Source: an uncultured virus (IMG/VR IMGVR_UViG_3300046171_000308) (Duplodnaviria; Heunggongvirae; Uroviricota; Caudoviricetes). Taken from it: a stretch of 64,000 nucleotides of DNA. Position numbers and translations under genes: made by a program. The stretch lies in IMG/VR virus record IMGVR_UViG_3300046171_000308. One strand, 5' to 3'. A model generated the notes under the pieces. That model was given only the letters and a program-made list of their open reading frames with translations, was not told the origin of the DNA and ran no database searches. This document shows, piece after piece, positions 8,967 through 64,000 of the stretch; within the stretch, counting starts at the first letter, position 1; each line of letters begins with the position of its first letter.

Positions 8967-9698
8967 TTACTGTGCAGTGCGAACAAGCGCTGTGATAGAA
9001 ACCAATGAGCTTGTGTTTGCCGGTGGTGTAGTAATGTCTGCGACAGTTGTCTCAGCGTCGCCAGCAGCATTGCCCTTCATCTTGAAGCTTGCATTGAGAG
9101 CTGCGACTGTTACATCACATGTACCAGTAGCACTTAGAGTACCAGTAGCGGTTGCTTCGCCAGCAAGAGCTGTCATATCAACAAAGAACACAGGGCCTCC
9201 AACAGAATCAGCTAGAAGCTCAGCATTCAGTGCTTCAGCGTGGGTAGTTGTAGTAGCCAGCAATTCAACAACAGCTGGTGTTGTGAAACCTGCGCCGTCA
9301 AAGCTAATCAAACCGGTGTTAAGAATCGACAAGATTGAAGCACCAGCGTTTGGTCCGGTTTCAGCAGCTGTGTTACCAGTTGCGTGAAGGTCGGATGCAG
9401 TAGCTAAGTGGGCACGAGATGGTCCGACTAGTGGAGCCAACATGCTAGCGTTTAGGTCTGCAACTACTGGGTCGGTACCCGAGGCTGGTGTTACTTCTGC
9501 GTTCGCTACAACAGGTACGATGTAGTCAGCTTTTAGTAGTGAGCCTTCTCCTTGGATTCGGTTGTAAACATGCATGAGGTTAGCAAATGCTTGAGCAGTT
9601 GTACCGGTGTTTGTGCTTACTTCGACAAAGAGAAAGTTAGTACGTACAATTTTAACTTGTGAACCATATCCTAGGTCCATTCCTGCTAATGTTACCAT
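8967..9698 (-). CDS. virion protein, paralogue family A (probably abundant)
   Basis: Perfect GGAGGTGA RBS; MVTLAGMDLGYGSQVKIVRTNFL...SITALVRTAQ; follows the MCP candidate. Confidence 0.75.
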   Translation of the reverse strand: MVTLAGMDLGYGSQVKIVRTNFLFVEVSTNTGTTAQAFANLMHVYNRIQGEGSLLKADYIVPVVANAEVTPASGTDPVVADLNASMLAPLVGPSRAHLATASDLHATGNTAAETGPNAGASILSILNTGLISFDGAGFTTPAVVELLATTTTHAEALNAELLADSVGGPVFFVDMTALAGEATATGTLSATGTCDVTVAALNASFKMKGNAAGDAETTVADITTPPANTSSLVSITALVRTAQ

Positions 9699-9744: not shown

Positions 9745-10356
9745 TCAGCTCAATTCTCCGATAGTTTGTCTCTGTTGAATTAGCTCGTGGTGTTGTCCAA
9801 TAACGCTACCAATGACTCTCCACTTCTCTGCACCAGCAATGGTGGAGTTTCCGTAGTTAGCAAGTCCACCGACTACACGGTGAGCACATACGATAGTTTT
9901 CTCAGGTTCTACAATAATTGGCATTTCGTACCAGACGAAAGGCTCTTCTAGAACTTCGAAGATTTGTTGGTCAACTACTGGTGTTTCTACACCGGAGATT
10001 CTCCATTGGTGCTCAGTTACAAGTAGAGGTGATACAGGGTATTGAATTCCCATAATCAAGTAGTAGAATTCTTCAAGGGTCTTGAAGTCCAAAACTCTTT
10101 GTGCCCAGCCGAAAGAATCGACGGTTACGCTGTTTGGGTTTCCTGTGCTACCGGATGAAGGGACTAGCCACTGTCCGAATGTTCCCAAAATTGAGAATTG
10201 GTCAGCTCTTAGTACACCTTTACCGTAGCCTTGCTTTGGCCATACGTATTTGTAATCGCCCCAGTGGCGGAAGTTCGCAGATACAGCCGAAAGAATTTCG
10301 GTGATGTATGCATCAATTGTGCTCATTGGTCTGTCATAATAAGGTCTTAGTTCCAT
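9745..10356 (-). CDS. candidate single jelly-roll major capsid protein
   Basis: 203 aa; first gene of the structural operon; alternating beta-strand pattern (YLIMGI, VTEHQW, PIIVEPEKTI, WRVIGSVIG) consistent with one jelly roll. Confidence 0.5.
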   Translation of the reverse strand: MELRPYYDRPMSTIDAYITEILSAVSANFRHWGDYKYVWPKQGYGKGVLRADQFSILGTFGQWLVPSSGSTGNPNSVTVDSFGWAQRVLDFKTLEEFYYLIMGIQYPVSPLLVTEHQWRISGVETPVVDQQIFEVLEEPFVWYEMPIIVEPEKTIVCAHRVVGGLANYGNSTIAGAEKWRVIGSVIGQHHELIQQRQTIGELS

Positions 10357-10569
10357 GTTTATCGCTCCATAATTTTTGTTTCCCCGCGTTTTTATTGGGC
10401 GGGTTATCCAGTGCTAGGTAGGTCCCCCTTATGAAAGACGGGATTCTATTGAGTAGCAATTGATATGAAATAGGTTGAATAGACTGCTTTTGCTCTACTA
10501 TGTCTTTTAACACTTTTCAAAGGCCTACTATTAGAAACCATTAAGTCCATCATGAAAGGTAGGGCAACC

Positions 10570-10779
10570 ATGAGTAAGACTCATCAGGTACAGATACGCA
10601 TGGATGCTGACGTATTTGCCAAACTAAAAGCCCTAGCAGATGATAACGGACTAGCACTAGCTACATACATACGTTCTCTACTTATACAGTATACTAAAGG
10701 AAAACTAGATACATTGGAGGATGATGTAGTAGCTAAGTTAGCAGGAATAACTACTACACGCCCGGATGTGACATTCTAA
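10570..10779 (+). CDS. ribbon-helix-helix transcription regulator
   Basis: QVQIRMD..VF.KLK.LA...GL.LATYIRSLL pattern; start reassigned to MSKTH, 24 nt after TTAAG. Confidence 0.8.
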   Translation: MSKTHQVQIRMDADVFAKLKALADDNGLALATYIRSLLIQYTKGKLDTLEDDVVAKLAGITTTRPDVTF

Positions 10780-11111
10780 TGCAGAAGACTCTAGGTACTA
10801 AGTTAGTGGGATTATCAAATCCTGAAAGCGAGCCAAGCTGGGTTATACAAGTAGAAGCTAGACTAGATACAGGCGCTTCTCGTTCTTCTATTGATGAAGG
10901 TTTTATTTCTCTTCTTAGATTAGAGGATTATATTTACGAAGGTGCAATCAAAGTAAAAAGTGCTAACGGTACTCAAAGGAGAGATACTGTAGTGTTGGTA
11001 ATTGTTGATGATGACGATGAAGAAGTAGAGCTAGAAGTATCAGTAACTAATAGGGAACACTTAGGATATCCTATGATACTGGGTAGAGATTACATAGAGG
11101 GATTGAATTGA
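10779..11111 (+). CDS. retropepsin-like aspartic protease (RimK-associated/DUF785-type)
   Basis: ARLDTGASRSSI catalytic motif, VKSANG flap, and R....YPMILGRD C-terminal motif. Confidence 0.88.
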   Translation: MQKTLGTKLVGLSNPESEPSWVIQVEARLDTGASRSSIDEGFISLLRLEDYIYEGAIKVKSANGTQRRDTVVLVIVDDDDEEVELEVSVTNREHLGYPMILGRDYIEGLN

Positions 11112-11320
11112 ATATAGCAGACGCAGCTAGATTTATTGCCGATGGTATGGTAATGAAGATAGAGTTAAGCGATAGTGTAGATAAAAAAATAGATGATATT
11201 CGAGCAGAAGTAAAAGAAATAACCAAGGAAGCGATAGATAAGATAGACCGAAGATGGTATATTACTCAAGTTTTGATTGCCCTTGGTTTAATTGGTAATG
11301 CTGTTGCTATGTTAGTATAG
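11108..11320 (+). CDS. small coiled-coil protein with C-terminal TM helix
   Basis: 70 aa; overlaps the protease stop codon; hydrophobic C-terminus. Confidence 0.6.
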   Translation: MNIADAARFIADGMVMKIELSDSVDKKIDDIRAEVKEITKEAIDKIDRRWYITQVLIALGLIGNAVAMLV

Positions 11321-11321
11321 G

Positions 11322-12167
11322 TCACAGTATTATATTACCGAAGGTGCTAGTTGAATTGGAACTAACTTGTTGCATGGGAACGTGAAGGAAAACTCCGTTA
11401 TTCAATCCAGGGGCGAGGTTTTTGCCATCGCTGTAAACCTTGTAAAAGTGTCTAACACTCATTTGACCAGACCCAGAAAATTGGTCTTTTAATTCAGTGC
11501 TTGTATGCTGCAAGACTATGCGTAACATCGAGCCATCGGGGAAATCAAAAACCACTGACGCTCTCTTGATTCCGTAACCAGGAGTACCTTCAATGAACCC
11601 ACGTAAAATATGTCCGTCAACATCTTGGGCGATAGCAGTGTTCCAGTCATACTTTGCGTTCGCTCCCCCGGGGCCTTGCATTGCCCAAAGCTGTAAGACA
11701 TTAGTCTCTGATTCTGGGTTGCTTAACCCTAGTAGGTTAAAACCAACACTTGATGCAGCTAGATTATTTTTAAAATTGGTAGCTTTCCACGGATTCCACC
11801 CGGACAAGTTCCACCTAAAATCAAAACTTTCAGGCCTTAGCAATGTCGTAGCAATAAGGTCCCTTGTCTCTGGGTCGACATCGTCGAGCGATATGTTGAG
11901 GGAGACTGTTTTTATTGGGTTTTGCTCAGTGCTTGTGAAAATTGGTGCAGAAACAATAGTAGGATTCGGGATTGGCGCCGAGTAGGGTTGATAATCTGGC
12001 TGACTCATCGGTGAGTTCGGATAATACTGTGACCTATACGTGGGGAAGTCTGGGCGCTTGGAGCTTGTCGTTGGGTCTATATTTAGTTTCATTCTACTAA
12101 GTAGATATGCTGCTACCCCAGCACCAATCAAACCACCTGCTGAAAGTCCTAAAACTTTCGCGACCAT
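11322..12167 (-). CDS. N-terminally membrane-anchored protein
   Basis: Gly-rich TM helix, Pro-rich linker and beta-rich domain; contains GLSNPESE. Confidence 0.7.
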   Translation of the reverse strand: MVAKVLGLSAGGLIGAGVAAYLLSRMKLNIDPTTSSKRPDFPTYRSQYYPNSPMSQPDYQPYSAPIPNPTIVSAPIFTSTEQNPIKTVSLNISLDDVDPETRDLIATTLLRPESFDFRWNLSGWNPWKATNFKNNLAASSVGFNLLGLSNPESETNVLQLWAMQGPGGANAKYDWNTAIAQDVDGHILRGFIEGTPGYGIKRASVVFDFPDGSMLRIVLQHTSTELKDQFSGSGQMSVRHFYKVYSDGKNLAPGLNNGVFLHVPMQQVSSNSTSTFGNIIL

Positions 12168-12207
12168 GATGTGCCGATACTATCGCAAGTTATCAAAGTA
12201 TTGTCAA

Positions 12208-12284
12208 TGGCGCCCCTGCCAGGATTTGAACCTGGGTTATTGGTTCCGCAAACCAAAGTGATATCCATACTACACTACAAGGGC
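12208..12284 (-). tRNA. tRNA-Arg(GCG) with encoded CCA
   Basis: Cloverleaf: acceptor GCCCTTG/CAGGGGC, anticodon arm TTGGT-TTGCGGA-ACCAA, T arm CCAGG-TTCAAAT-CCTGG, then G-CCA. Confidence 0.93.
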
Positions 12285-12464
12285 ATTGGGTATATTGAGT
12301 ACTGGAGGTCTAATAATAGCTTGATACCAGTCTCTAGGTGATTCCTTGTAAGGACTCCCCTGTGGCATCCATCCATCCTCCATCGCGTGATTTACTTTGT
12401 AGATTAAATCCTCAAGGCTATCGCCCATTATCACGTGATAGAGTTTATCTTGCACTAGTTTCAC
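12270..12464 (-). CDS. DUF1737-like small protein
   Basis: Y.VI.G....DL..KVN.AM.DGW.PQG.P....YQAI pattern; GTG start coupled to the upstream stop. Confidence 0.65.
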   Translation of the reverse strand: MKLVQDKLYHVIMGDSLEDLIYKVNHAMEDGWMPQGSPYKESPRDWYQAIIRPPVLNIPNALVV

Positions 12465-12640
12465 TCTCTTAGTGAAAGAATGTGCTTTCTAACAACGTCA
12501 CAGGATTTCTTAAGTTCAAGAAGTCCTTTTCTGACACGTGTCCCAGCAGCTTTTTGTCCTTTATCGACTTTCTCTGCGTCAACATCTAGTTCATTCAGTT
12601 GTTCTTTAAGCTCATTCAATAGGTCGGTAACAGTCGCCAT
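12461..12640 (-). CDS. Hc1-like (bacterial histone H1-like) small protein, 59 aa
   Basis: Translated by hand: MATVTDLLNELKEQLNELDVDAEKVDKGQKAAGTRVRKGLLELKKSCDVVRKHILSLRE; the DAEK..KG.KAAGTRVRK motif is typical of the Hc1 N-terminal domain. Confidence 0.8.
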   Translation of the reverse strand: MATVTDLLNELKEQLNELDVDAEKVDKGQKAAGTRVRKGLLELKKSCDVVRKHILSLRE

Positions 12641-12668
12641 GAAAGTAAATCAGCTTCGCCCTGACTAT

Positions 12669-12736
12669 AAAGATGGGCCCTCAAGCAAGACAGGTAACCC
12701 CTCACCTACATGGACGCTTGAGGGCCCGGGGATTGG
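12669..12736 (-). ncRNA. candidate small structured RNA 2
   Basis: Perfect 12-bp stem GGGCCCTCAAGC/GCTTGAGGGCCC (12675-12686 with 12716-12727) plus an inner AGGT/ACCT stem; TATA-like TAGTATAAG about 25 nt upstream. Confidence 0.45.
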
Positions 12737-12768
12737 CCCATGCAAGCAAGCGTAGCTTATACTAATAG

Positions 12769-12860
12769 AAAAAGTGGGCAGGTGGAGATAAGGGGGGAGA
12801 AAAGAAGAATTGCAAAAACCCCCCACCCAGGGCCACCTGTTAATCCCGAAATCCCTGGAC
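12769..12860 (-). ncRNA. candidate small structured RNA 1
   Basis: CAGGTGG/CCACCTG and G6/C6 stems around a pyrimidine-rich loop; TTTTTTATA box upstream and a T5 run downstream. Confidence 0.45.
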
Positions 12861-12924
12861 ATTTCTCCGATACCAGACTAGTATAAAAAAGTAGAACCAG
12901 TATAATCACTGATAAGTCTCAGGA

Positions 12925-14316
12925 CTAAACTTCTATGAATATAATGGGGAACACAAAATCCACAAAGGTATCTCCGAAGGCTTGAGTGTTAATTACGCAG
13001 CGAACTCGGATTGTGTGTTCAGACTCTTCAAAGCCTAGTGCAGGTACATCTATCCTCAGAGTATCCCAAACCCTTGAAGTCGCTGTAGTCCCAACCCAAT
13101 TAGTAGGGAAATTGAAATTGCCTGCCTTGTCGGCAAAGTTGACAATTGACCAAGAGTAGCTTACGTGGCCTAAGTTGTCAAAGTTGATACCGTCATCAGT
13201 CAGCGTTTTGATTGCCATGGTGATGTCTCCTGCTCCAGGGACTAGCCCTGTCGATGATACTTCAATCTCTAGAGCGCTTAGTGCCTCATATACGAGTGGG
13301 CTTGCTGATGACTGCCCATTTCCACTAAATTGGGTGTTAAAGGTAATAGAGCCTATATCCATATCACTAACTACCTTTGGCGTAAATACATTACCAGGTG
13401 TGCCAGAAAGCTGGGCTACCTTACTTTGTTTGGGCGAACTGTCGTTAAAATCTTCGTGAAGACCGGCAACGTATAACTCTGAGCCGTCCGAATTCCAATC
13501 AAGACCCGCCGGACTTGCGAAAGTAGTGGCATCAAAGTTACCTAGCCTACCGCCTAAATTAAGACTAGTTACAAACGTCTTTGTGGATAAATCGAAAGGA
13601 GTAGATAATGAAAATTCTGCGACTTTAGGGGTATCATTTGATTTATAGCAAACAAATACCTTAGTTCCGTCAGGGTTGAACCTTATGCCAAACAAAGCCG
13701 TTATAGTATCGCCGTCGTCATCAGTTACCGCTAAAGAAACCGTACTTGTCGAAAAAGTAGATGTAATATCATAATTAGTACTAAGTCCGACTACTTTTAC
13801 ATCAGCATTGTTACTCTCTGGCAAGAACATTACACTACCGTCTGTCTTGAACGCTATTCCTTGAGGTGAAGCGAAAGATGAGGTATCCGCTGTCGTCGTT
13901 GCTGCAACCGATGACAAATCATAAGGCGTAGAAAGGGCATATCTTTTCAAATAAGGGCTAGCCAACCCTATAACATACAGGAAACTACCATTGTTAGCAA
14001 AACAAGTACCTCTTGGGTTATGGGTATTTAACGAAATATCCCCTTCGATGTTATCGGTTTCAAAGATTGCGGTCGATATATTAGTATCATTGTAACTATA
14101 AGATATTAGTTGCTCATTACTGCCTGGCTCTGTTACAAGGAAGATTCTGTCTTGTCCTCCAGTCATAAGCTCTGTTTTTGGGTTGATACCTGCCCTCGCT
14201 ATTCTAACCGACGTACCAACATCGCCATCAACAGCTGTTTTTATGAATGCAAGACTGTATGTGTTATCTACTGCACTAGCTCCTTGAACAACTCCAAATT
14301 GCCAGTGTAGCCCCAT
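12925..14316 (-). CDS. beta-propeller adhesin/receptor-binding protein
   Basis: Repeated blades GxxFxxDGxxxYV and LSTPYDLS. Confidence 0.7.
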   Translation of the reverse strand: MGLHWQFGVVQGASAVDNTYSLAFIKTAVDGDVGTSVRIARAGINPKTELMTGGQDRIFLVTEPGSNEQLISYSYNDTNISTAIFETDNIEGDISLNTHNPRGTCFANNGSFLYVIGLASPYLKRYALSTPYDLSSVAATTTADTSSFASPQGIAFKTDGSVMFLPESNNADVKVVGLSTNYDITSTFSTSTVSLAVTDDDGDTITALFGIRFNPDGTKVFVCYKSNDTPKVAEFSLSTPFDLSTKTFVTSLNLGGRLGNFDATTFASPAGLDWNSDGSELYVAGLHEDFNDSSPKQSKVAQLSGTPGNVFTPKVVSDMDIGSITFNTQFSGNGQSSASPLVYEALSALEIEVSSTGLVPGAGDITMAIKTLTDDGINFDNLGHVSYSWSIVNFADKAGNFNFPTNWVGTTATSRVWDTLRIDVPALGFEESEHTIRVRCVINTQAFGDTFVDFVFPIIFIEV

Positions 14317-14320
14317 TTAA

Positions 14321-16054
14321 TCACCCAATCCTTATCCAGGTATTATTTCCACTACAAACAAAGGTAGCCGCTTTAAAAGATTCAATATCATCTAATGCAG
14401 TTGCGGCACCGCCATTAATAGTGGCAGAGTTTTGAACAGTTATTTTTGCGCTAATAGCAGAAGATGTTTCATTGAATACAGTAAACTGAACACCTGCGCT
14501 TGTATTATTATTAATTGAAGGCAGGGCCAAAGTTGAATTAGCATTTTCAAATATAACTAATACTCCTGAATCGGCTATAGTAGGTGAATAAGTCCCATTT
14601 CCTAAAACTACAGTAGTTACTCTTGAGTTAAGCCCTGGATGAGTAGTTGGTGTCGCACCTGCCGAAGCAGTAATAGTATCGGGTTGCCCTACATTTGCTA
14701 CAATGGTCGAAACTGTATCTTCATTTTCATCAATTAAAGATACACCGAATTTAAGATTACCACCTTTATCTGAGCTAGAGTGAGCTTCTGTTGCAATAGA
14801 GGCAATAAAGGCAGAAGATTCTAAAACCGAAGAAGGCACATTACCATCAGTAGAATCAAAACCAATTCCACCAAGTAAATCCCCGTCTTGGACGCCTGCA
14901 TCGACTCTAACAACCATTATCCCATTATTTGCGTCAGAACCGCTATGATTGACTTGAAACTTATTAGCGGGGGCAGTAGTTCCTATTCCTACCTTACCAT
15001 CAGATGTAATTCTCATCTTTTCATTAGCAGTTTCACTTGCACCTGTATTGAATAATAAAGCTGTGGCATTTACTGTATCACTAAATGTAGCAGTGGCCAG
15101 TGCTATAATAGAAGCACCTACTAAATCTGAATCTAACCCTGTATCTAACGGAGCTTGAAAGTCAATTCTACCAAGAACATCATTTGCCGCCACAGCTGTT
15201 TCTTTTGTTGATAGCGTTAATATTGCTCCTGCGGTACCTGTGCCATCTTGTATCTCTAATGAAGAAATAGGAGTACTGGTTCCTATGCCAACTTTGCCGT
15301 CAAGTCCCTTTATCCTCAATTTTTCAGTAGGTGCTCCACCAATCGCTGTGCTAAATATTAAGTCTGTTACGTTAGTACTTGCGGTAAATGTATTAGTAGC
15401 AACGGCATGAATGGACGCCGCAACGTCCCTTCCAGTATGTCCTACGCTGCCGTGTAATGGTGCTTGAAAGTCAATTCTACCAATAACATCATCTGTCGCA
15501 ACAGTTGTTTCTTGTGTTGCTAGGGTTAATACTGCGCCCAATGTCCCTGTTCCGCCTTGCACCTCTAAAGTAGAAGCCGGGGAAGTGGTACCAATACCTA
15601 CTCTGCCAGTGTTAGTAATTCGCATTCTTTCAGTGGCGGTTTCACTAGTCGCTGTTTTGAATAACAAAGCTGTTGCGTTTGTTGTATCACTAAATGCGGT
15701 GACGGCCAATGCTTGAATAGAAGCACCTACTAAATCTGAATCTAATCCTGTATCTAACGGGGCTTGAAAATTGATTTGACCTAGTACATCATTAGTATCA
15801 ACACTTGGTTCTTTTGTTGATAAAGTCAGTACTGCTCCTGTAGTGGTTAAACCATCTTGTATCTCTAATGAAGTGGAGGGAGTACCAGTCCCTATACCTA
15901 CTCTATTATTACCAGCATCAACCATAAGCATGTTGGTATTACCGCTACTTTCAACCCTAAAGTCGGCGTCAGAACCAGACTCGTTTATTGTTATAGCAGC
16001 ATCTAAATCAGTACCTCCACCACCGCTACTTGCTGGTGCATTGTATAATGGCAT
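14321..16054 (-). CDS. fibre/spike protein with three internal ~100-aa repeats
   Basis: Repeats of VGIGTxxP...LEIQ...IDFQAP...ERMRIT; the N-terminal INESGSDADFRVES motif is shared with 17028..18905. Confidence 0.8.
   Translation of the reverse strand: MPLYNAPASSGGGGTDLDAAITINESGSDADFRVESSGNTNMLMVDAGNNRVGIGTGTPSTSLEIQDGLTTTGAVLTLSTKEPSVDTNDVLGQINFQAPLDTGLDSDLVGASIQALAVTAFSDTTNATALLFKTATSETATERMRITNTGRVGIGTTSPASTLEVQGGTGTLGAVLTLATQETTVATDDVIGRIDFQAPLHGSVGHTGRDVAASIHAVATNTFTASTNVTDLIFSTAIGGAPTEKLRIKGLDGKVGIGTSTPISSLEIQDGTGTAGAILTLSTKETAVAANDVLGRIDFQAPLDTGLDSDLVGASIIALATATFSDTVNATALLFNTGASETANEKMRITSDGKVGIGTTAPANKFQVNHSGSDANNGIMVVRVDAGVQDGDLLGGIGFDSTDGNVPSSVLESSAFIASIATEAHSSSDKGGNLKFGVSLIDENEDTVSTIVANVGQPDTITASAGATPTTHPGLNSRVTTVVLGNGTYSPTIADSGVLVIFENANSTLALPSINNNTSAGVQFTVFNETSSAISAKITVQNSATINGGAATALDDIESFKAATFVCSGNNTWIRIG
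15107..15769. repeat. 54-nt direct repeat within the fibre gene (15107-15160 and 15716-15769)
   Basis: 52/54 identical, encoding FQAPLDTGLDSDLVGASI. Confidence 0.8.
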
Positions 16055-16063
16055 TATAATTCC

Positions 16064-16804
16064 TCATTGAGCAGTTTGAATCAGGGCGGTAACGGATAAA
16101 ACTACCCAAACTTTATTGTTTATGAATGGGCTATCGAAAGTAGTAGGAGTAAGTCCTGCTGTATTACCCTCCGGTATAAAAGAAGTAGTAAATACGGGTC
16201 TTGGGTACTGAATAGTGCTTGCTTCAGAATCTACGTCGTCGATTACATTGGTTAAGTCGACAGTCGAAGCTGCATTGAGCTCTTCGAGGAATTGGTCCTT
16301 GATAAGTTCTCCATTAATCACGTCAAGCATAGGTATATTATTACTGCCTATAGGGTTTAAGACCACAGTAGCGACAGTGTCAAAGGTGTCTGAAGTACCG
16401 TCTGCTGTTAGTTTAACAGCTCCGATACTAACTACTTGGTGGATAATCCCATTGGACTTCTCTCCAAGTTTAACGCTAGTATTCGCATGTCCTTCAAGGC
16501 CGCTTGCGTTTGCTAAGCTATTGGTGCTAAGGCCCATTAACGATACTTTTCCCTTGTTTTCATGAGTTGCAATTACCGGGCTTGTAATATTAACACCGCT
16601 GTTAGAATCACTTGAAGCCACAAATATATAATCGCACTGCAAATTTTTAGGCAAACGGTTATTTGCTAGTGTTAGAAAATTACTCAACCCTGTATTATGA
16701 GAGGCAGTCAGAGCACTATCAGCTGAACGAGTAACCAAAAAATTTGTTCTGATAAGCTTTGCTTGCGAGCCGTAACCTGTATCCATTCCGCCTATTATCG
16801 CCAT
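16064..16804 (-). CDS. virion protein, paralogue family A
   Basis: Start reassigned to MAIIGGMDTGYGSQAKLIRTNFL; shares NFLTLANNRLPK.L.CDYI and EGNT.GLTPTTF with 7818..8606. Confidence 0.75.
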   Translation of the reverse strand: MAIIGGMDTGYGSQAKLIRTNFLVTRSADSALTASHNTGLSNFLTLANNRLPKNLQCDYIFVASSDSNSGVNITSPVIATHENKGKVSLMGLSTNSLANASGLEGHANTSVKLGEKSNGIIHQVVSIGAVKLTADGTSDTFDTVATVVLNPIGSNNIPMLDVINGELIKDQFLEELNAASTVDLTNVIDDVDSEASTIQYPRPVFTTSFIPEGNTAGLTPTTFDSPFINNKVWVVLSVTALIQTAQ

Positions 16805-16845
16805 GTCCGTCACATAGGCCAATGCTTATTATACAATAAACGTAT

Positions 16846-16995
16846 CTACTCTGCTAATGCTTCTTCGAAAGCATCAACAATAGTCAACAGTGCTTCTGCA
16901 CCGCCTTTGCCTTTTACTTGCATGTTTGCATTTATGAAAGCTAATAAGGATTCTGCTATTTCTTTGGGTAGTTTAATGGTTACTTCTTCTGTCAT
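16846..16995 (-). CDS. small helical protein (49 aa, MTEEVTIKLPKE...)
   Basis: Translated by hand; TTTAAG box 23 nt upstream; lies between fibre genes. Confidence 0.6.
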   Translation of the reverse strand: MTEEVTIKLPKEIAESLLAFINANMQVKGKGGAEALLTIVDAFEEALAE

Positions 16996-17027
16996 AGTAC
17001 GCCCATGTTCGCTATGAACTTAAATCT

Positions 17028-18905
17028 TCAGGGGTCTTCTAATTCTAGTGGACTGAAGTAATATTTACTTTTACCGATGGCAACTTCTAGGGCACCGCCT
17101 TTCACTATCTTTGCATTAAATGAAATTGATGTAACATTATTCAGATGGCTGTTCCCATTTTTCCCGTCTGACCCTGCCGGGCCTTGCGCCCCAGTATCAC
17201 CCTTGTCACCTTTGGCTCCAGCAGAACCACTTGAGCCAGTATCACCCTTGTCACCTTTGGCACCAGGAGACCCAGTATCACCTTTGTCTCCTTTAGTACC
17301 GGTTATTTCGGTTAATTCCTTTTCCATCTCCGCTACTCTCTTTACAAGTAAGTCAATGTAGTTAACTGCCTTAACACCGCCACCTAAGTTGTAAACTAAT
17401 TCAGGGTAGTCATTTTCTATATCTTCTACAACCACACCGTATCTTTTACGAGTAGTATCACCTGTTCTGAATTCATATTCTTTGAATGGGATGACTTTAG
17501 CCTTGGTTTTAGTAATAGTTGCAATATTCTTTTTGAGGCTCTGCATAGATGTTTGAGTTAATGCATTACAGGTCATGTTTCCTGAAGCGAGGATAGCACC
17601 ATCAACTTCTAGCTCAACACTTGGATTATTGGTTCCGACACCTATATTACCATCCGACCCTCGAACGAATAGAGCATGTGTTTTGGGACTAGCCCCGGCA
17701 CTCTCAACACGGAAATCAATATCTTTTGATGATTCATTAATAGTTAGTTCAGTTCCACCAAATCGCATAAATTCAACTAAATCTGTTCCGGCTCTTGCAG
17801 CACTAAACAGCATTCTACCATCTTCTGTTCCTCCGGTTTCATCTAACATATCGGCAAAAATACTGGCGTAGTTGTGAATGTTTCCTCCATCATCTCTTCC
17901 TTTCCACCTAATATGTCCTATGTCCATAGAAGCAGCAGGTGATGCGGTGCTTCTGTAGAAAACAAGTTCCGGCTCATTAGAGGCTGTGCCAGTATTTTCT
18001 ATTAGGATAGTTGGTTCTGTTCCATCTGCGTCACTAAGATGTAATTTTTCGCTGGGCTGAGCAGTTCCTATACCAACATTACCAGCAGATGTAATACGCA
18101 TTCTTTCTGTATCAGTACCATCTTGTGCAGTATTAAAGACCATGAAAGAGTCTTGTGTTGAAGCGGTCGCACTAGTGTCTTCTTCCCAGGCGACCCCTAT
18201 TCTTCCAGCATGAACATCGGAGCCTCCGCTGTGGCGAAGATACCAGTCAAGTGCGGCTCCGCTACCATCGTTATTGGCGTCACCGGCTCCACCTTGTTGG
18301 TATAGGCGGAGGGTCGAACCCATAGTTCTGATAGTTGAGTTTTGGAATATTTGCACTTGTTGGCTGCCTGTAAAAAGATTGATGTCCATTTCTTGTTGGT
18401 TGTAATTGAGAGTGATGTTACCGGTGCCAGTTGGATGACCTTCCATCCACAACATGGTTTTTAGGTTATTTTGATGCCTTACCTGCATAAACAAACCGCC
18501 TGCTTTTGCGGTGTTTGAGTTATCGTCTATGCGGCCAAATATCTTTGCGTAGTTAACATCTGCCCCAGAGTCCGTCTTACCGGACATAGCAATACTGCCA
18601 ATGTAATCTCCGTCGGTGCTACTACCGCTTTTTAAGAGAATTTGAGGAGCGTCGTCTGCGGTGCTTGAACTTTCAGCTGTAGACTCGAATATTACTAAAT
18701 TGCCAGTTGTTGCATCTTGAACATGCAATAACGTTTCCGGTGTACCAGTTCCTATACCAACTCTATCATTACCAGCATCAACGAAAAATATATTCTGGTT
18801 GTCGTCAGACTCGATTCTGAAGTCTTTGTCAGCAGAGTTTTCGTTAATAGTGATATTGCCATTAACTACGCTGTGTGGTATCGGCGTTGGACGATATATC
18901 GGCAT
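17028..18905 (-). CDS. fibre protein with S74-type intramolecular chaperone followed by a collagen-like segment
   Basis: VGIGT repeats; TSMQSLKKNI...YGVVVEDI...YPELV...AVNYIDL; then GDKGDTG Gly-X-Y repeats; start reassigned to MPIYRP after GGTGA. Confidence 0.8.
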   Translation of the reverse strand: MPIYRPTPIPHSVVNGNITINENSADKDFRIESDDNQNIFFVDAGNDRVGIGTGTPETLLHVQDATTGNLVIFESTAESSSTADDAPQILLKSGSSTDGDYIGSIAMSGKTDSGADVNYAKIFGRIDDNSNTAKAGGLFMQVRHQNNLKTMLWMEGHPTGTGNITLNYNQQEMDINLFTGSQQVQIFQNSTIRTMGSTLRLYQQGGAGDANNDGSGAALDWYLRHSGGSDVHAGRIGVAWEEDTSATASTQDSFMVFNTAQDGTDTERMRITSAGNVGIGTAQPSEKLHLSDADGTEPTILIENTGTASNEPELVFYRSTASPAASMDIGHIRWKGRDDGGNIHNYASIFADMLDETGGTEDGRMLFSAARAGTDLVEFMRFGGTELTINESSKDIDFRVESAGASPKTHALFVRGSDGNIGVGTNNPSVELEVDGAILASGNMTCNALTQTSMQSLKKNIATITKTKAKVIPFKEYEFRTGDTTRKRYGVVVEDIENDYPELVYNLGGGVKAVNYIDLLVKRVAEMEKELTEITGTKGDKGDTGSPGAKGDKGDTGSSGSAGAKGDKGDTGAQGPAGSDGKNGNSHLNNVTSISFNAKIVKGGALEVAIGKSKYYFSPLELEDP

Positions 18906-18962
18906 TGGGCTCACCCATGCTAAAGAGGCTTAGAGCATAAAGTTACCCGATTAAGGGTCTAA

Positions 18963-18996
18963 CAGCCCCGAGAAAGCTTACGCTTTCCCGGAGCTG
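18963..18996 (-). terminator. stem-loop downstream of the protamine-like operon
   Basis: Minus strand GGGAAAGC-GTAA-GCTTTCTC, a GNRA-capped hairpin with an extended stem. Confidence 0.5.
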
Positions 18997-19021
18997 AGAG
19001 ACACTGTTTAGGATAGTGTGC

Positions 19022-19207
19022 TCACTTGCGCATCTTCATGAAGGCTAGCAAACCAACAGCTACAAGAGCAATGTGTCCAACATCGAAGCCTGCAAAGACT
19101 CCTCTGTTAAGAGTGTTCATTACTGCATTGTCACCGTCTAGTATGCCTGCTGAGCCGTCCATATATGGGTCATGTGCTGCGCCTAGGTTGCCGCGATAAG
19201 GGTTCAA
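19022..19207 (-). CDS. small membrane protein
   Basis: GAGGTGA RBS; GNLG motif; C-terminal TM helix followed by a basic tail. Confidence 0.65.
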   Translation of the reverse strand: MNPYRGNLGAAHDPYMDGSAGILDGDNAVMNTLNRGVFAGFDVGHIALVAVGLLAFMKMRK

Positions 19208-19216
19208 GTAATCACC

Positions 19217-20221
19217 TCAAAAGACGTTGATTACTCTACCCATGTCGTGGTAGCCAGCTGCGCCATCATGCATGCCGTGGGACATACCGAATGGTTCGAA
19301 AGGTGCTTCACCTAAGTAGCCGAATGCAGAGTCATTACCAGGCATTGTGTTGGAACCTGCTAGAAGTCCGCCAAATCCGGAGCTGCCAGATGGGTTAACC
19401 AATGCTACTCCTGGTAGAGGTAGGTTGAGGTAGGTGTTAGCAAGGTTTAGTACTGCAACAGTTGCACCAGCTAGAGCTATTGTGTTAGCGACATTGTTGC
19501 TAACTAGTCTCATACTGGACAGTGCGTAAGCAGCTAGACCGGTTAGAACACCGCCAGCAATTGGGCCTCTGAATCCAGATGTTAAGTCAAGGCTTCGTCC
19601 ACTAATCTTGGAGATTAGTTTTTCAGTCATTGCTGGTAGTCTAACACCAGCAACTAGACCAAGACCTAGAGATGCAATTGCTTCGAATGCGGTCATGTTA
19701 CCGATAACGAAGTTGTATGCGCCTTTCATGCTCATCTTCTTGCTACGAGTTGTGCGGCGACGTGAGACACGGCGACGACGGGAAGTTGTTCTGCGCTTTG
19801 GTGATGCACGGCGGCGTGTGGTACGGCGACGGCGTGTGGTACGGCGGCGCTTTGGTGATGCACGGCGGCGTGTGGTACGGCGACGGCGTGTGGTACGGCG
19901 GCGCTTTGGAGCTGATTTGCGACGTGTGGTACGGCGACGGCGTGTGGTACGGCGGCGCTTTGGTGCCGCTTTACGACGTGTGGTACGACGACGACGTGTG
20001 GTTTTGCGGCGCTTTGGTGCCGCTTTACGACGTGTTGTCTTTCTGCGCTTTGGAGCTGCGCGGCGCTTGGTTGTTTTGCGACGACGTGTGGTGGCGCGAC
20101 GCTTTGGTGCTGCTTTTCTACGGGTAGTTCTTCTACGAGCCATATTGTTCACTTTCCTAGTTTTAGTGGCTCGTCTGCTCTTCTTTCCCGGGTTTACAAT
20201 TACCAGTTCTTGAAGAGCCAT
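19217..20221 (-). CDS. protamine-like DNA-condensing protein with C-terminal membrane domain
   Basis: About 130 aa of RRRTTRRR/(A/S)PKR repeats followed by three hydrophobic helices; start reassigned to MALQEL after AGGTGG. Confidence 0.85.
   Translation of the reverse strand: MALQELVIVNPGKKSRRATKTRKVNNMARRRTTRRKAAPKRRATTRRRKTTKRRAAPKRRKTTRRKAAPKRRKTTRRRRTTRRKAAPKRRRTTRRRRTTRRKSAPKRRRTTRRRRTTRRRASPKRRRTTRRRRTTRRRASPKRRTTSRRRRVSRRRTTRSKKMSMKGAYNFVIGNMTAFEAIASLGLGLVAGVRLPAMTEKLISKISGRSLDLTSGFRGPIAGGVLTGLAAYALSSMRLVSNNVANTIALAGATVAVLNLANTYLNLPLPGVALVNPSGSSGFGGLLAGSNTMPGNDSAFGYLGEAPFEPFGMSHGMHDGAAGYHDMGRVINVF
19793..20008. repeat. 54-nt tandem coding repeat (4 units)
   Basis: GCGCTTTGG recurs at 19793, 19847, 19901, 19955 and 20009; the unit encodes xxPKRRRTTRRRRTTRRx. 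Confidence 0.9.
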
Positions 20222-20356
20222 TCTAGCCACCTGTGTTAAGCCGATTGAGCATAAGGGTATAAAGAGCTCTGTGATAGTATATGATAATATCATATTTTAG
20301 TGGGAGTAGACAATTTCTCCCTAATCCTCATAACCGTAAAGATAGTGGAGGGTTCA

Positions 20357-20656
20357 ATGGGGCGGCATCCAGAACGGGATAAAATTAGAAAGCAAGCCGT
20401 TTCTATTACTTTAGACCAAAATGATATTGCTTTTATTGACCAAGGAATTAACTTCCGCATGTTTCAAAATCGAAGCCACGCAATAGCTTGGGCATTACAA
20501 CTTCTAAAGCAACATGTAGCTAATATTACTCGTCTTCAACAAGAAGGGGCTCGTCGTCTAGAGGAAACGGCTCGGAGAGGGAGTCTAAATAATTCAGGAT
20601 TCCCACAGCAAGGGCCGACGCAGCCTGACGGTAGTTTAGGCCTTCCCCCTCGTTGA
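20357..20656 (+). CDS. ribbon-helix-helix (CopG/MetJ-like) regulator
   Basis: AVSITLD...IAFID......FQNRSHAI..AL pattern; start reassigned to MGRHPE. Confidence 0.75.
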   Translation: MGRHPERDKIRKQAVSITLDQNDIAFIDQGINFRMFQNRSHAIAWALQLLKQHVANITRLQQEGARRLEETARRGSLNNSGFPQQGPTQPDGSLGLPPR

Positions 20657-21152
20657 CTTCAATAAGTAATGATGGTACATCCATTAATACTGTGGCCATG
20701 TTACTAATGTAATTTTCAAAACCTCCCTGCTCTTCTACTGTTCTAATACTCATTTCTTCTAATGATTCTTCTACAAATGCCAGTAAATCTTGGTCAGTAA
20801 TGTCAGGAGTATTGAATATAACCACGGTGGCTTCTGACCAAACGAGTAAATCATAACCCGTGCTAGTTTGCATAGGCTCCTCTGTTGATGGGTAAGAGTG
20901 TAAATCTATGTGAACATCAGCAGTCAAAAGTGCATCTCTTACTTTTTGTACCCAAGGATGAGAATAAGCTCGAAGACGGTTTAAGTCTAATATGTCTCTA
21001 TTAGTTGTACCTACTAAGGTAGTAAATGGTATTTCTATTTCTTCTAGTGCTTCTTCTAGAAGTGGTAGAAGCTCTAAAGCACCAACATCGCTATTGCGCT
21101 CTCCGTCTCCGCTTGGTGACTCGCCGTGGGGGACTGTGATTACAACTGCCAT
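20526..21152 (-). CDS. Zn-dependent hydrolase (N-formylglutamate amidohydrolase/M14-like fold)
   Basis: ITVPHG, DLNR, HIDLHSY and LIEV motifs. Confidence 0.65.
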   Translation of the reverse strand: MAVVITVPHGESPSGDGERNSDVGALELLPLLEEALEEIEIPFTTLVGTTNRDILDLNRLRAYSHPWVQKVRDALLTADVHIDLHSYPSTEEPMQTSTGYDLLVWSEATVVIFNTPDITDQDLLAFVEESLEEMSIRTVEEQGGFENYISNMATVLMDVPSLLIEVNEGEGLNYRQAASALAVGILNYLDSLSEPFPLDDEPLLVEDE

Positions 21153-21868
21153 CGTGACAAGCGTAGACGCTTTAGGTTATTGTCATTACCGGTCTTTTCT
21201 TTCTTCTCTCCTACTGGTGCATGTTTTTTCCACACTCCGTCGCCTACAGTGGCATAAAACCAGTACCTATTCTCGGGAGCTTGGAAGTAAGGTAGAAGCT
21301 CTGAAAAGTGGTCAAGGTTACGAGAGCGTAAATATTCCGGGCGGTCTTCTACTTTGAACAGTATCTTATTTTCAGATTGAGACCAAATAGTCTCGTTGAG
21401 TAACTGTATACGTTGAGTAATGGCTAATCCTAGAATTCCCTGGCCAGCCCCTACTGTCCATAATCTTTCGATTCCATCATTACCTCCTTTCTTTACCATG
21501 AGTTGAACCTCATCAATTGCAAAAACCCGTTTTATTTGTTTGTATCCTCTCGTCTTCGAAACTTGAAAGGTTAAGTTAATGACACGTGTCAATTCATCAC
21601 ATCGCTTATTTTTCTCTGGACTTGGTCTGTAGATTATCGCTGGAGTTTTCGATAACAATTTAGCATAAACTTGCATAGGGGAGGTACAGATAACTCCTAG
21701 GTCAGCATAATCGTCATCATGCTTAGGGTCAAAGAAGATAGTATGGACTCCCTGGAGCTGTAGCTTTTTGAGGATAAACCTGGTTGCATACGTCTTACCT
21801 GAGCGTGTTTGACCTACAATAGCAGTATGACGGCGACTTATGTTAGTGAGTAGTCGCTTGGCTACCAT
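21140..21868 (-). CDS. genome packaging ATPase (A32/FtsK-HerA superfamily)
   Basis: Walker A GQTRSGKT, FFDPK, Walker B FAIDEVQ, and ITQR motif; 242 aa standalone, typical of tailless icosahedral viruses. Confidence 0.85.
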   Translation of the reverse strand: MVAKRLLTNISRRHTAIVGQTRSGKTYATRFILKKLQLQGVHTIFFDPKHDDDYADLGVICTSPMQVYAKLLSKTPAIIYRPSPEKNKRCDELTRVINLTFQVSKTRGYKQIKRVFAIDEVQLMVKKGGNDGIERLWTVGAGQGILGLAITQRIQLLNETIWSQSENKILFKVEDRPEYLRSRNLDHFSELLPYFQAPENRYWFYATVGDGVWKKHAPVGEKKEKTGNDNNLKRLRLSRWQL

Positions 21869-21898: not shown

Positions 21899-22384
21899 TT
21901 AGCCCCTGAGAAAGAAGAAGAGAAGACCAGCAGTAAGAAGGGGTGTAGGTATCTGTAGAGGCTTGGTTTGCTTAATTGACTGAGCAAGCTCGGGGAAGTC
22001 TGCTCTAAACTTTGGAACTAGTTTCTCTGCGTCATATAGGCGCATGTTACTTACTGGGTTCATTGTAGTAGGAGCATGTGTATGACCATAACCAAGTGCA
22101 TGTCCATATTCGTGAGCGATTAGCTTTTCGTCATTAGCATAACTACCGTCTATTACGATTAGAGAACTAGTAGCATCTCCCAAAGTAATACCTCTAGGGA
22201 AGTAACCCCTACCAGTTAGGTTGTGAACTTGTTTCATTGTGGGGGTAGAATACCACTCCATGTTATCTTTGTTTAGCTGACCGTTAACAAATACGACCCA
22301 GTCCTTGTGAGCAAGGGTAGCTATGGTTACATTATTACTAACACCTATGACTTGGTAACTCTCATATTCTCTCGCTTCCATCAT
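21899..22384 (-). CDS. matrixin-like metzincin metalloprotease with C-terminal membrane anchor
   Basis: HEYGHALGYGH followed by a Met-turn (TTMNP); hydrophobic C-terminus. Confidence 0.82.
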   Translation of the reverse strand: MMEAREYESYQVIGVSNNVTIATLAHKDWVVFVNGQLNKDNMEWYSTPTMKQVHNLTGRGYFPRGITLGDATSSLIVIDGSYANDEKLIAHEYGHALGYGHTHAPTTMNPVSNMRLYDAEKLVPKFRADFPELAQSIKQTKPLQIPTPLLTAGLLFFFLRG

Positions 22385-63943: not shown

Positions 63944-64000
63944 TCACTTTCACTTAGGTAAAAACGGCTACAGGAATCTTTAATAGGCGTTTTACACCAC

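Follow-up and report, generated by a model that had tools for sequence, protein, structure and literature searches.

The window, a stretch of 64,000 nt, covers part of the genome of a marine virus, ~140 kb in size and with genes of archaeal type. It carries a single tRNA gene, a tRNA-Arg with anticodon GCG (12208..12284, minus strand, 77 nt with the CCA encoded), identified with ARAGORN and Rfam. On the same strand lie a gene for an Arg-rich protein (19217..20221 in the ORF list, 334 aa from a conserved MALQEL start) and, as the anchor of a conserved gene block, the gene for an FtsK/HerA-type P-loop ATPase, a putative genome-packaging ATPase (21140..21868; Pfam DUF87/HerA and AAA_22). One gene and a small divergent ORF separate the ATPase gene from the downstream Arg-rich gene. 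In PHROG the ATPase matched an FtsK/SpoIIIE-like family and the P-loop portion of a terminase family, and its only match among 50,697 phage records is a weak one to the ATPase of virus SH1 (25% identity, E = 3e-4). Collinearity with G004, a complete, closed 140-kb record of a relative of the window virus, delimited a ~9-kb block that is unique to the window's lineage (10357..19216, minus strand) and lies between the Arg-rich gene and a conserved 203-aa gene. This block contains fibre-like genes, small Hc1-like and DUF1737 ORFs and the tRNA; the Arg-rich and 203-aa genes of L001, L002, L003, L005 and L114 are ~0.8-1.1 kb apart.

That tRNA-Arg(GCG) is the sole tRNA had been claimed in an earlier sequence-only reading of this DNA, and this holds for the window with both programs. 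The single gathering-score match of Rfam in the window was RF00005 at the tRNA site, with 60.3 bits against a threshold of 29. The anticodon loop is TTGCGGA and the D-loop contains GGA. A20 and C35 are Arg identity elements; both are present in the viral tRNA, which has GCG and not ACG as its anticodon and is thus archaeal in type. The earlier description of GCG as the archaeal solution fits a scan with a pattern running from the D-arm to the anticodon, in which all 5 cellular matches were archaeal tRNA-Arg(GCG) genes, although the pattern itself fixed the anticodon and identity bases and the scan shows only where it occurs. The viral gene departs from the compared cellular archaeal genes in its 3' end, as CCA is encoded in 7/7 viral tRNA genes versus 0/6 cellular archaeal tRNA-Arg genes. 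Among six viral copies, 9 of the 23 predicted helical pairs were preserved through two-sided changes. Because of these compensatory changes and the CCA encoded in all 7 copies, the viral tRNA looks functional as judged from its sequence. Between the viral tRNAs and the closest cellular ones found, identity is only 71-81%.

Counted from the first ATG, the longest Arg-rich ORF spans 19217-20293 (minus strand) and has 358 aa, but the MALQEL start is the one conserved in relatives. Its poly-Arg repeat core (19739..20140, minus strand) is built of RRRxTTRRRxxxPKRR units, corresponds to residues 52-185 of the 358-aa ORF and has 63 Arg in 134 residues. Residues 1-165 of the protein comprise 66 R, 21 K, 30 T, 8 S, 8 P, 0 D and 1 E, a protamine-like composition in which extreme Arg content is combined with Ser/Thr and acidic residues are nearly missing. 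The core is followed by a Gly/Ala-rich hydrophobic C-terminal domain (19427..19729, minus strand), in which three to four helices are predicted at residues 165-265 of the 334-aa protein, with pLDDT 62-79 in AlphaFold2 and hydropathy peaks of 1.2-1.5. The model of the whole protein has a mean pLDDT of 52, and the poly-Arg core is of low confidence and without secondary structure. The protein could be assigned to no Pfam or PHROG family, Foldseek gave no match with E <= 0.001 in BFVD, and all 30 homologues found are unnamed or "hypothetical". An Arg-rich ORF of this kind follows the ATPase gene in 6/7 IMG/VR loci and 69/80 metagenome loci; the seventh IMG/VR locus, L004, stops at a contig end and the Arg-rich gene spans that junction. 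Between clades, identical non-Arg residues are encoded with 40-50% synonymous differences, and the Arg-rich reading frame is therefore under purifying selection. A putative DNA-condensing role is suggested by the composition and by the place beside the packaging ATPase.

Arg codon use sets this gene apart from the rest of the window. The Arg-rich ORF contains CGT 30, CGC 28, CGA 2, CGG 0, AGA 11 and AGG 1, compared with CGT 170, CGC 149, CGA 119, CGG 28, AGA 431 and AGG 113 in 53 other chosen ORFs, so that CGC and CGT (CGY) make up 58/72 versus 319/1010 Arg codons (Fisher p = 2e-16). The statements of the sequence-only reading that the repeat is nearly all CGC/CGT and that AGA is common elsewhere were both confirmed, since the codon map gives 58 CGC/CGT among the 63 Arg codons of the repeat core and AGA is the commonest Arg codon in the other ORFs (431/1010). 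By part of the 358-aa ORF, CGY accounts for 58/63 in the core, 0/4 in the N-terminal part and 0/5 in the C-terminal domain; the C-terminal part (residues 186-358) uses 4 AGA and 1 CGA, which is the genome default. The codon bias is therefore confined to one gene and to one domain of it. Arg-Arg neighbours in other genes showed no enrichment of matching codons (CGY 31% versus 32% and 26% versus 31%; CGG 7% versus 8%).

The core contains a tandem array (19815..20035, minus strand) for which Tandem Repeats Finder gave a period of 54 with 4.1 copies and 90% matches, and in addition a period of 18 over 19812-20002. Of the 58 CGY codons, 37 lie within the array region 19812-20035 and 21 outside; those in the array are not independent observations because they stand in tandem repeat copies. 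Likewise, 41 of 51 CGG codons of the Arg-rich gene at locus L082 are in tandem arrays and 10 are outside. As such arrays, with 64-90% matches, span most of the poly-Arg tract, repeat amplification accounts for part of the codon uniformity, and much of this uniformity may stem from it and not from selection on each codon.

The pairing of anticodon and codons was followed through the relatives. Exactly one tRNA, always for Arg, was found in 6/6 relative records searched whole (G001-G005 and G006:C22), including the entire 140 kb of G004 (ARAGORN), and in 7/7 cases, the window and the 6 relatives, it is on the same strand as the block of ATPase and Arg-rich genes. In six cases (window, G001, G002, G003, G005 and G006:C22) anticodon GCG is accompanied by a CGY-coded Arg-rich gene, with CGY at 58/72 Arg codons in the window and at 73/80, 67/79, 63/76, 61/79 and 56/72 in the others. 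G004 has a tRNA-Arg(CCG) instead, and CGG accounts for 51/73 Arg codons (70%) of its orthologous Arg-rich gene. In the remaining genes of G004, CGG is the rarest Arg codon (188/2288, 8%; p = 4e-36 versus the Arg-rich gene). The remaining genes of G006:C22 have CGY at 441/1456 Arg codons (p = 8e-16 versus its Arg-rich gene). CGY use is thus far from uniform in the window and in G006:C22. The Arg codon used most often genome-wide is AGA in the window, in G006:C22 and in G004; it is read by no viral tRNA. In the clade of G001-G003 the genes neighbouring the Arg-rich gene have 54-59% CGY, and the tRNA of these viruses may act for the genome as a whole.

The preference follows the density of Arg residues. 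In 42 Arg-rich genes of the CGY type, densely spaced Arg is encoded by CGY in 88% and isolated Arg in 68% of cases, and in 3 genes of the CGG type CGG is used for 79% of dense and 14% of isolated Arg. Within CGY, the dense tracts have CGC 1322 versus CGT 895, CGC being the Watson-Crick partner of G34, while the remaining genes of G006:C22 have CGT 326 versus CGC 115.

In an ATPase tree (MAFFT and FastTree; calculated without L106, which has a stop codon inside the match, L061, which is on the same contig as L001, and the short ATPase pieces of L057-L059, L070, L103 and L101), the branch of the CGG clade is shallow and lies within a group of CGC-rich relatives. Its CGC-rich sister clade (L088, L079, L078, L080, L085 and L105) was covered through the codons of its genes. 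A further clade (L052-L056) is coded in nearly pure CGC. The Arg-rich proteins of the CGG clade are 81-84% identical to those of the CGC-rich relatives, and each comparison gave 38-45 aligned Arg-Arg sites with CGG opposite CGC or CGT and at most 1 with CGG on both sides. Anticodon and tract codons have thus switched together, in one independent switch. The CCG tRNA of G004 is apparently a fresh capture and not a point mutant, because it is closer to a cellular Thermoplasmatota tRNA-Arg(CCG) (81% identity) than to the viral GCG tRNAs (64-73%). The match of anticodon and codons is found in four deep clades, whose ATPases have 59-65% identity to that of the window, and it is found anew after the switch. 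Because of the bias in the window, the matching pairs of the relatives and the joint change in G004, the tRNA and the poly-Arg tract look co-adapted.

The explanation that we favour, with a probability of roughly 0.65, is that the viral tRNA supplies decoding capacity for the poly-Arg tract and that selection keeps the pairing and not a particular codon. The tract is written almost entirely in the codons read by the virus's own, archaeal-type tRNA-Arg, and a demand of 63 Arg in 134 residues would be translated slowly by a host with about one gene per Arg isoacceptor, in which tRNA-Arg would be limiting. The Arg-rich protein would presumably be made abundantly and late in infection. Its Arg/Lys tail could then neutralise the ~140-kb genome, and the hydrophobic C-terminal domain may anchor the protein, perhaps in an internal membrane. 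An anticodon switch would have been feasible because turnover of the tandem units probably spread a new codon rapidly across the tract.

The sequence-only reading had gone further and regarded the tRNA as carried specifically for the Arg-rich gene, and as a whole this interpretation is partly supported. The link to the codons of that gene stands, as the co-variation proposed as a check was found in the relatives (six GCG/CGY pairs versus one CCG/CGG pair, in G004) and none of the 6 lacks the tRNA. Exclusive service is doubtful, as ~30% of the Arg codons in other genes are also readable by tRNA-Arg(GCG) and the neighbouring genes in G001-G003 reach 54-59% CGY. By codon count the Arg-rich gene holds 15% (58/377) of all matching codons in the window, 11% in G006:C22 and 21% (CGG) in G004, and the claim that it dominates the demand on the tRNA depends on an assumed expression level. 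A stronger form of the supply hypothesis, which we regard as unlikely, is that the virus runs a private decoding channel in which the poly-Arg tract has one tRNA and one codon class to itself. If true, synthesis of a potentially self-toxic, genome-condensing protein would be gated by the amount of viral tRNA, which would act as a translational timer independent of the host tRNA pool; the codon would be arbitrary and could be reassigned wholesale, as from CGY to CGG, by capture of a new tRNA-Arg and repeat turnover.

The same codon counts bear on a general codon compensation, in which the tRNA supplements a host isoacceptor to the benefit of all viral genes and the Arg-rich gene is one consumer among them. 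Of the matching codons, 79-89% by plain count belong to other genes. Among the Arg codons of these other genes CGY has a share of 30-32% in the window and in G006:C22; at the loci of G001-G003 the share is 54-59%. However, a tRNA with this purpose would hardly be expected to read CGG, as in G004, where this codon is the rarest elsewhere (8%) but accounts for 70% of Arg codons within the Arg-rich gene, or to leave AGA, the commonest Arg codon in the window, G006:C22 and G004, without any viral tRNA. We therefore consider this explanation improbable.

Two further explanations are less probable still, and about equally so. In the first, the tRNA is a present or former attachment site captured by a serine recombinase, with the codon match arising later or by chance. 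In G004 and in G001/G003 a serine-recombinase (resolvase) homologue indeed lies no more than ~1.2 kb from the tRNA, in differing orientation, and the CCG tRNA resembles a fresh capture. However, the tRNA genes are full length with CCA encoded, their cloverleaf has been kept through compensatory changes, and even the nearest cellular tRNAs found share only 71-81% identity with them. The tRNA of the window stands at another place than in the relatives, with no recombinase among 48 ORFs scanned against Pfam, and the search for an ATPase homologue in Thermoplasmatota genomes, described below, gave one weak and unrelated match. Capture would moreover explain the origin of the tRNA but not that the tract codons follow its anticodon. 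In the second, the viral tRNA is an insurance against defence or shut-off and replaces host tRNA-Arg that is cleaved or depleted in infection. Such a function has been proposed for phage tRNAs generally (PMC10264068), and an encoded CCA would free the viral tRNA from CCA addition; it does not, however, predict that the codons of one gene alone track the anticodon, and no tRNA repair or nuclease inhibitor gene was identified in the window with PHROG and Pfam. Coincidence, with uniform codons as a by-product of the amplification of one repeat unit and a tRNA that matches by chance, fits the arrays that span most of the tract but is barely credible given the match in four deep clades and again after the switch (two independent matches have a chance of ~5 in 10,000, a rough figure that assumes a lone tRNA drawn from ~46 anticodons) and the 21 CGY codons of the window and 10 CGG codons of L082 outside arrays.

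Phage tRNAs reportedly match codons that the virus uses more often than its host does, especially in late genes (Bailly-Bechet et al. in 2007). The present case is similar in that a virus-encoded tRNA reads codons over-represented in a gene of the packaging and structural block. It differs in having only one tRNA, in an excess demand limited to one domain of one gene and in a joint switch of anticodon and codon, in G004 to the Arg codon that is rarest elsewhere. A literature search at the level of abstracts found no such gene-specific case of tRNA and codons. In the silk gland of Bombyx mori, tRNA pools are adapted to the codons of fibroin. There too, tRNA supply is tuned to one repetitive protein of extreme composition, but by cellular, tissue-level regulation of host tRNA genes, whereas here the tRNA gene is viral and the codon choice free. 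Protamine-like genome-condensing proteins include baculovirus P6.9, adenovirus VII/mu and the SPRRR tail of hepatitis B core. The protein described here shares with them Arg runs with Ser/Thr and Pro, and its gene is near that of the packaging ATPase. Unlike those proteins it matched no sequence family, carries hydrophobic helices in a C-terminal domain of 170 residues and apparently belongs to a virus of an archaeal host. What viral tRNA genes are for has long been asked without a settled answer, and the usual evidence is a weak genome-wide codon correlation. Here the system is reduced to one tRNA and one tract with a natural switch, CGC/CGT with GCG and CGG with CCG, and the supply hypothesis is therefore directly testable.

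The gene order was compared with that of Haloarcula hispanica virus SH1 (Sphaerolipoviridae), which we take to be an internal-membrane icosahedral archaeal virus. The SH1 ATPase is ORF 17, annotated as 'terminase large subunit' with the note 'putative ATPase'. In SH1 the gene for VP12 (285 nt), presumably a membrane protein, is followed by those for VP7 (~185 aa) and VP4 (~232 aa), all annotated 'head protein'; similarly, the Arg-rich gene is followed here by conserved genes for proteins of 203 and 243 aa, in a genome ~4.5 times larger than that of SH1. A virion module of the SH1 type would comprise an FtsK/HerA packaging ATPase together with two capsid proteins of the single-jelly-roll kind. 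Profiles of the 203-aa family showed no similarity to SH1 VP7 and VP4 (hhalign, probability <1%), its AlphaFold2 model was unusable (pLDDT 34), and neither the ESM Atlas nor a sequence search of the PDB yielded a usable result for the 203-aa protein as a capsid candidate.

No near-identical DNA to this region or to its tRNA was present in the 50,697 phage records. The viral thermosome reached a best identity of 45-46% across 401 Thermoplasmatota genomes, with no lineage prominent, and a profile search of these genomes identified no close ATPase homologue. One of the 401, considered as a candidate provirus or host, matched the ATPase profile weakly (45.6 bits); its contig was judged unrelated because of its 70% GC and the lack of an Arg tRNA in the 36 kb examined. 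In 3 oligo-dT marine RNA runs, identity to the window was confined to scattered contigs, 151-414 nt long and at a depth of 2-6; DNA carry-over is possible in these runs, and the contigs cannot rank genes.

The window is collinear with G004, in which Pfam identified DNA_pol_B, Cpn60_TCP1 (450 bits), Resolvase and RNA_pol_Rpb1 domains 1-5, and none of its genes was recognisable as a head-tail capsid, portal or terminase gene. The PolB, thermosome, resolvase and RNA polymerase A genes of G004 lie outside the window. For group D, a magrovirus group of Marine Group II archaea, four genes are listed in PMC5434244 and PMC10160649: PolB (the DNA polymerase of family B), a thermosome subunit, a resolvase and subunit A of RNA polymerase. 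All 4 are present in G004, and the gene set of the window virus fits "magrovirus group D", a putative assignment made by gene content. Group D is an abundant marine archaeal element whose nature as a virus or a plasmid is left undecided in both papers, which describe neither a closed genome nor a morphogenetic block (PMC5434244, PMC10160649). In contrast, a closed 140-kb record is available here together with a block that comprises the FtsK/HerA ATPase, fibre-like genes and an Arg-rich protein with a putative hydrophobic anchor, and these are the first candidate virion-side genes for this group.

A single tRNA gene, tRNA-Arg(GCG), was predicted by ARAGORN across the 64-kb window (12208-12284, minus strand). 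In the Rfam scan, the match to RF00005 at the same position (60.3 bits) was the only one at the gathering score, as the sequence-only reading had claimed for this stretch. The 3' CCA is encoded in the gene (12208-12210). This was found for all seven viral tRNA-Arg genes (the window; loci L008-L012 and L108 from relatives) and for no cellular archaeal tRNA-Arg gene among the six compared, and CCA addition would be unnecessary for the viral tRNA. Among six viral copies, 9 of the 23 predicted pairs had changed on both sides with pairing kept. A scan for the pattern from the D-arm to the anticodon loop matched six genome contigs: five archaeal tRNA-Arg(GCG) genes (two Thermoplasmata MAGs, Methanosphaera, Iainarchaeum and one further archaeon) and a related viral contig, G006:C22. 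Because the scanned pattern itself fixed those bases, the scan informs only on the occurrence of the pattern.

The Arg-rich ORF (19217-20293, minus strand) encodes 358 aa, and a MALQEL start conserved among relatives, at 20221, gives a protein of 334 aa. Its arginine codons (CGT 30, CGC 28, CGA 2, CGG 0, AGA 11, AGG 1) were compared with those of 53 others in a set of 54 non-overlapping ORFs chosen by length (CGT 170, CGC 149, CGA 119, CGG 28, AGA 431, AGG 113). CGC and CGT (CGY) account for 58 of 72 codons vs 319 of 1010 in the remaining ORFs (Fisher p = 2e-16); CGY usage in the window is thus not uniform, and AGA is the top arginine codon of the other ORFs, where it had been described as common. 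Only the repeat core shows the bias (19739-20140, minus strand; residues 52-185 in the numbering of the 358-aa ORF). It had been read as nearly all CGC/CGT and contains 58 CGY among 63 arginine codons; no CGY is present among the four of the N-terminal part or the five of the C-terminal domain (4 AGA and 1 CGA). A tandem array at 19815-20035 (minus strand; period 54, 4.1 copies, 90% matches; period 18 also called, from 19812) contains 37 of the 58 CGY codons, and repeat amplification accounts for part of the codon uniformity. Antisense to the repeats lies an ORF of 201 aa (19608-20213, plus strand; RRRVVRRRFG...), which recurs among relatives; it is a by-product, the mirror image of CGN repeats, with no sign of a gene.

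No tRNA was found within the ±10-kb loci around the ATPase genes of relatives. Whole records were searched with RF00005 (IMG/VR records G001-G005) or ARAGORN (G006:C22), and each of the six contained exactly one tRNA. A GCG anticodon was found with a CGY-rich gene in the window (64 kb, partial; 58/72 CGY), G001 (71 kb; 73/80), G002 (65 kb; 67/79), G003 (46 kb; 63/76), G005 (106 kb; 61/79) and G006:C22 (101 kb; 56/72). The complete 140-kb genome G004 carries tRNA-Arg(CCG), confirmed by ARAGORN as the single tRNA of the whole genome, and in its Arg-rich gene, which straddles the contig junction, 51 of 73 arginine codons are CGG (CGT 4, CGC 6, CGA 7, AGA 3, AGG 2). CGG makes up 188 of 2288 arginine codons (8%) in the remainder of G004 (p = 4e-36 vs the Arg-rich gene), and CGY makes up 441 of 1456 (30%) in the remainder of G006:C22 (p = 8e-16). 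The anticodon thus co-varies with the codons of the tract, as six GCG/CGY pairs and one CCG/CGG pair, and no searchable relative with these codons lacks the tRNA. The link proposed in the sequence-only reading between the tRNA and the Arg-rich gene is supported by these pairs. In all seven records the tRNA shares its strand with the block of ATPase and Arg-rich genes; its distance downstream from the ATPase gene is 9 kb for the window and 26-32 kb for the others. G006:C22 (L108, L114, L133-L138), whose ATPase is 59% identical to that of the window, is found in a GTDB species genome that carries a Flavobacteriales MAG label; its placement there probably reflects misbinning and no signal of a host.

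The codon match is specific to the tract. In other genes, arginines beside arginine showed no enrichment, with CGY at 31% vs 32% in the window and 26% vs 31% in G006:C22, and CGG at 7% vs 8% in G004. In 42 CGY-type Arg-rich genes CGY reached 88% in dense runs vs 68% at isolated arginines, and in three CGG-type genes CGG reached 79% vs 14%. CGC, the Watson-Crick partner of G34, exceeded CGT in dense runs (1322 vs 895), whereas G006:C22 outside its Arg-rich gene has the opposite preference (CGT 326, CGC 115). By plain count, only 11-21% of the matched codons sit in the Arg-rich gene, and in the G001-G003 clade the genes neighbouring it are already 54-59% CGY.

Of 69 metagenome Arg-rich genes, five were CGG-type and CGY was the largest class in 64, two of these are short fragments of the N-terminal part, in which CGY reaches only 42% and 55%. 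The CGG-type members of a 79-row ATPase tree (MAFFT, FastTree) fall into a single shallow clade with CGC-rich relatives around it; therefore the switch is one event, and the anticodon switch occurred once in the data, as one CCG/CGG clade. The CGG-type protein is 81-84% identical to its CGC-rich relatives, and each comparison showed CGG opposite CGC/CGT at 38-45 aligned Arg-Arg sites and CGG opposite CGG at one at most. Tandem arrays contain 41 of the 51 CGG codons of the CGG-type gene, and the new codon probably spread via turnover of repeat units. The CCG tRNA shares 64-73% identity with the viral GCG tRNAs (77-100% among themselves) and 81% with a Thermoplasmatota tRNA-Arg(CCG). These identities argue against a point mutant of the GCG tRNA, and suggest that the latter was replaced by a newly captured CCG tRNA. 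In relatives the tRNA adjoins a serine recombinase (resolvase) gene (L008, G004 28866-31937; L009-L012), in an orientation inverted in G004 vs G001/G003, and this recombinase may be the means of tRNA capture or exchange.

The tRNA of the window has a different location, a lineage-specific ~9-kb block with fibre-like genes, bounded by the Arg-rich gene and a conserved 203-aa gene. Family matches of the window ORFs revealed no recombinase near it, and thus the tRNA is kept independently of the recombinase. Just upstream, a 59-aa ORF (12461-12640, minus strand) matches Pfam Hc1 (61.4 bits, E = 7.6e-17), the histone H1-like protein of Chlamydia, and is a second putative DNA-compacting protein. A small ORF matching DUF1737 (12270-12464, minus strand) overlaps the 5' end of the tRNA. 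A fibre-like protein of the block (17028-18914, minus strand) contains collagen triple-helix repeats (GDKGDTG units); its match to the Peptidase_S74 chaperone is weak (20.0 bits, cut-off 22).

These results are best explained by co-adaptation of a virus-encoded arginine isoacceptor with a poly-Arg tract written in its codons. The sequence-only reading took the Arg-rich protein to be abundant and DNA-condensing, and composition and position suggest that it may be. Purely for illustration, each molecule would bring a net charge of about +86 to a 140-kb genome with roughly 280,000 phosphates, and even partial neutralisation would take hundreds to thousands of copies per particle, so that the poly-Arg tract would be the main late-infection user of the matched codon. 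Codon compensation and anti-defence are known general ideas for viral tRNAs. Full-text searches, judged largely on abstracts, gave no viral tRNA linked with a protamine-like or arginine-rich gene, and a lone tRNA whose anticodon switches with the codons of one gene appears undescribed in the literature searched.

ATPase relatives occur on at least 83 marine metagenome contigs, 80 of which were kept. An orthologue of the Arg-rich ORF lies downstream of the ATPase gene in 6 of 7 IMG/VR and 69 of 80 metagenome loci, separated from it by a small divergent ORF and one gene of ~200 aa. L004 stops short of this position, as do the 11 metagenome loci left; in G004, the record of L004, the gene runs across the junction. 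The reading frame is real: comparison of clades showed synonymous differences at 40-50% of the non-Arg residues that are identical. Residues 1-165 contain 66 R, 21 K, 30 T, 8 S and 8 P vs one acidic residue and had no confident structure in AlphaFold2 (27-row alignment), which modelled residues 165-265 as three to four helices (pLDDT 62-79) with a low-confidence tail after them. Because the hydropathy peaks of the helical region are moderate (1.2-1.5 over 19 residues), a membrane anchor is suggested only tentatively. No Pfam, PHROG or BFVD-fold match and no named homologue were found for this protein. Directly upstream, on the opposite strand, a small ORF (20300-20656, plus strand) is conserved in 10 of 10 relatives checked (36-74% identity); it has no Pfam match and by eye looks like a ribbon-helix-helix regulator (VSITLD...RSHAI motif). 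Three paralogues of 243-262 aa (7818-8606, 8967-9698 and 16064-16804, all minus strand) have a single counterpart in G004, a 243-aa gene, with 25-28% identity. No known relative was found for the product of the adjacent 203-aa gene (9745-10356, minus strand), which is conserved more strongly than any other protein of the family (about 77% to all clades). The paralogues and the 203-aa protein are capsid candidates.

Most window ORFs had no family match (Pfam, PHROG). Those recognised include an FtsK/HerA-type ATPase (21140-21868, minus strand), an MCM helicase (61484-63943, plus strand), RusA, fibre-like proteins with collagen repeats and a weak, sub-threshold Peptidase_S74 match, and very large ORFs with nucleotide-metabolism domains. 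Three marine RNA runs yielded only small scattered contigs from the window. The ATPase has seven IMG/VR relatives at 61-65% identity; its sole match in 50,697 records of phages and archaeal viruses was the ATPase gene of Haloarcula virus SH1 (ORF 17; 25% identity, E = 3e-4). The window is collinear with G004 (140,336 bp, 55-base terminal repeat), its positions 64000 to 1 corresponding to G004 from 93.8 kb across the junction to 8.7 kb. G004 encodes a family-B DNA polymerase, a thermosome subunit (450 bits), two archaeo-eukaryotic primase homologues, MCM, RNase H, a serine recombinase and an Rpb1/A-type RNA polymerase subunit. Philosof et al. (PMC5434244) ascribe PolB, thermosome, resolvase and RNA polymerase A to 'magrovirus group D', for which they obtained neither a closed genome nor a morphogenetic block; in a later paper the group is still viewed as possibly plasmid-like (PMC10160649). 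G004 contains all four listed genes and is by gene content a putative member of group D. A closed 140-kb record and a conserved block are present here. The block of FtsK/HerA ATPase, fibre-like genes and Arg-rich hydrophobic protein is a candidate for the missing morphogenetic module of group D. In the very large ORFs (up to 1852 aa), nucleotide-metabolism domains are fused to long unknown regions: guanylate kinase, GNAT and DUF5824 (22381-27939, minus strand) and HAD phosphatase (35553-37514, minus strand) in the window, and Ham1/ITPase with DUF5824 (L019:15416-17944) and HAD with NUDIX (L019:450-3200) in G004. The domain content varies between relatives at the same position.
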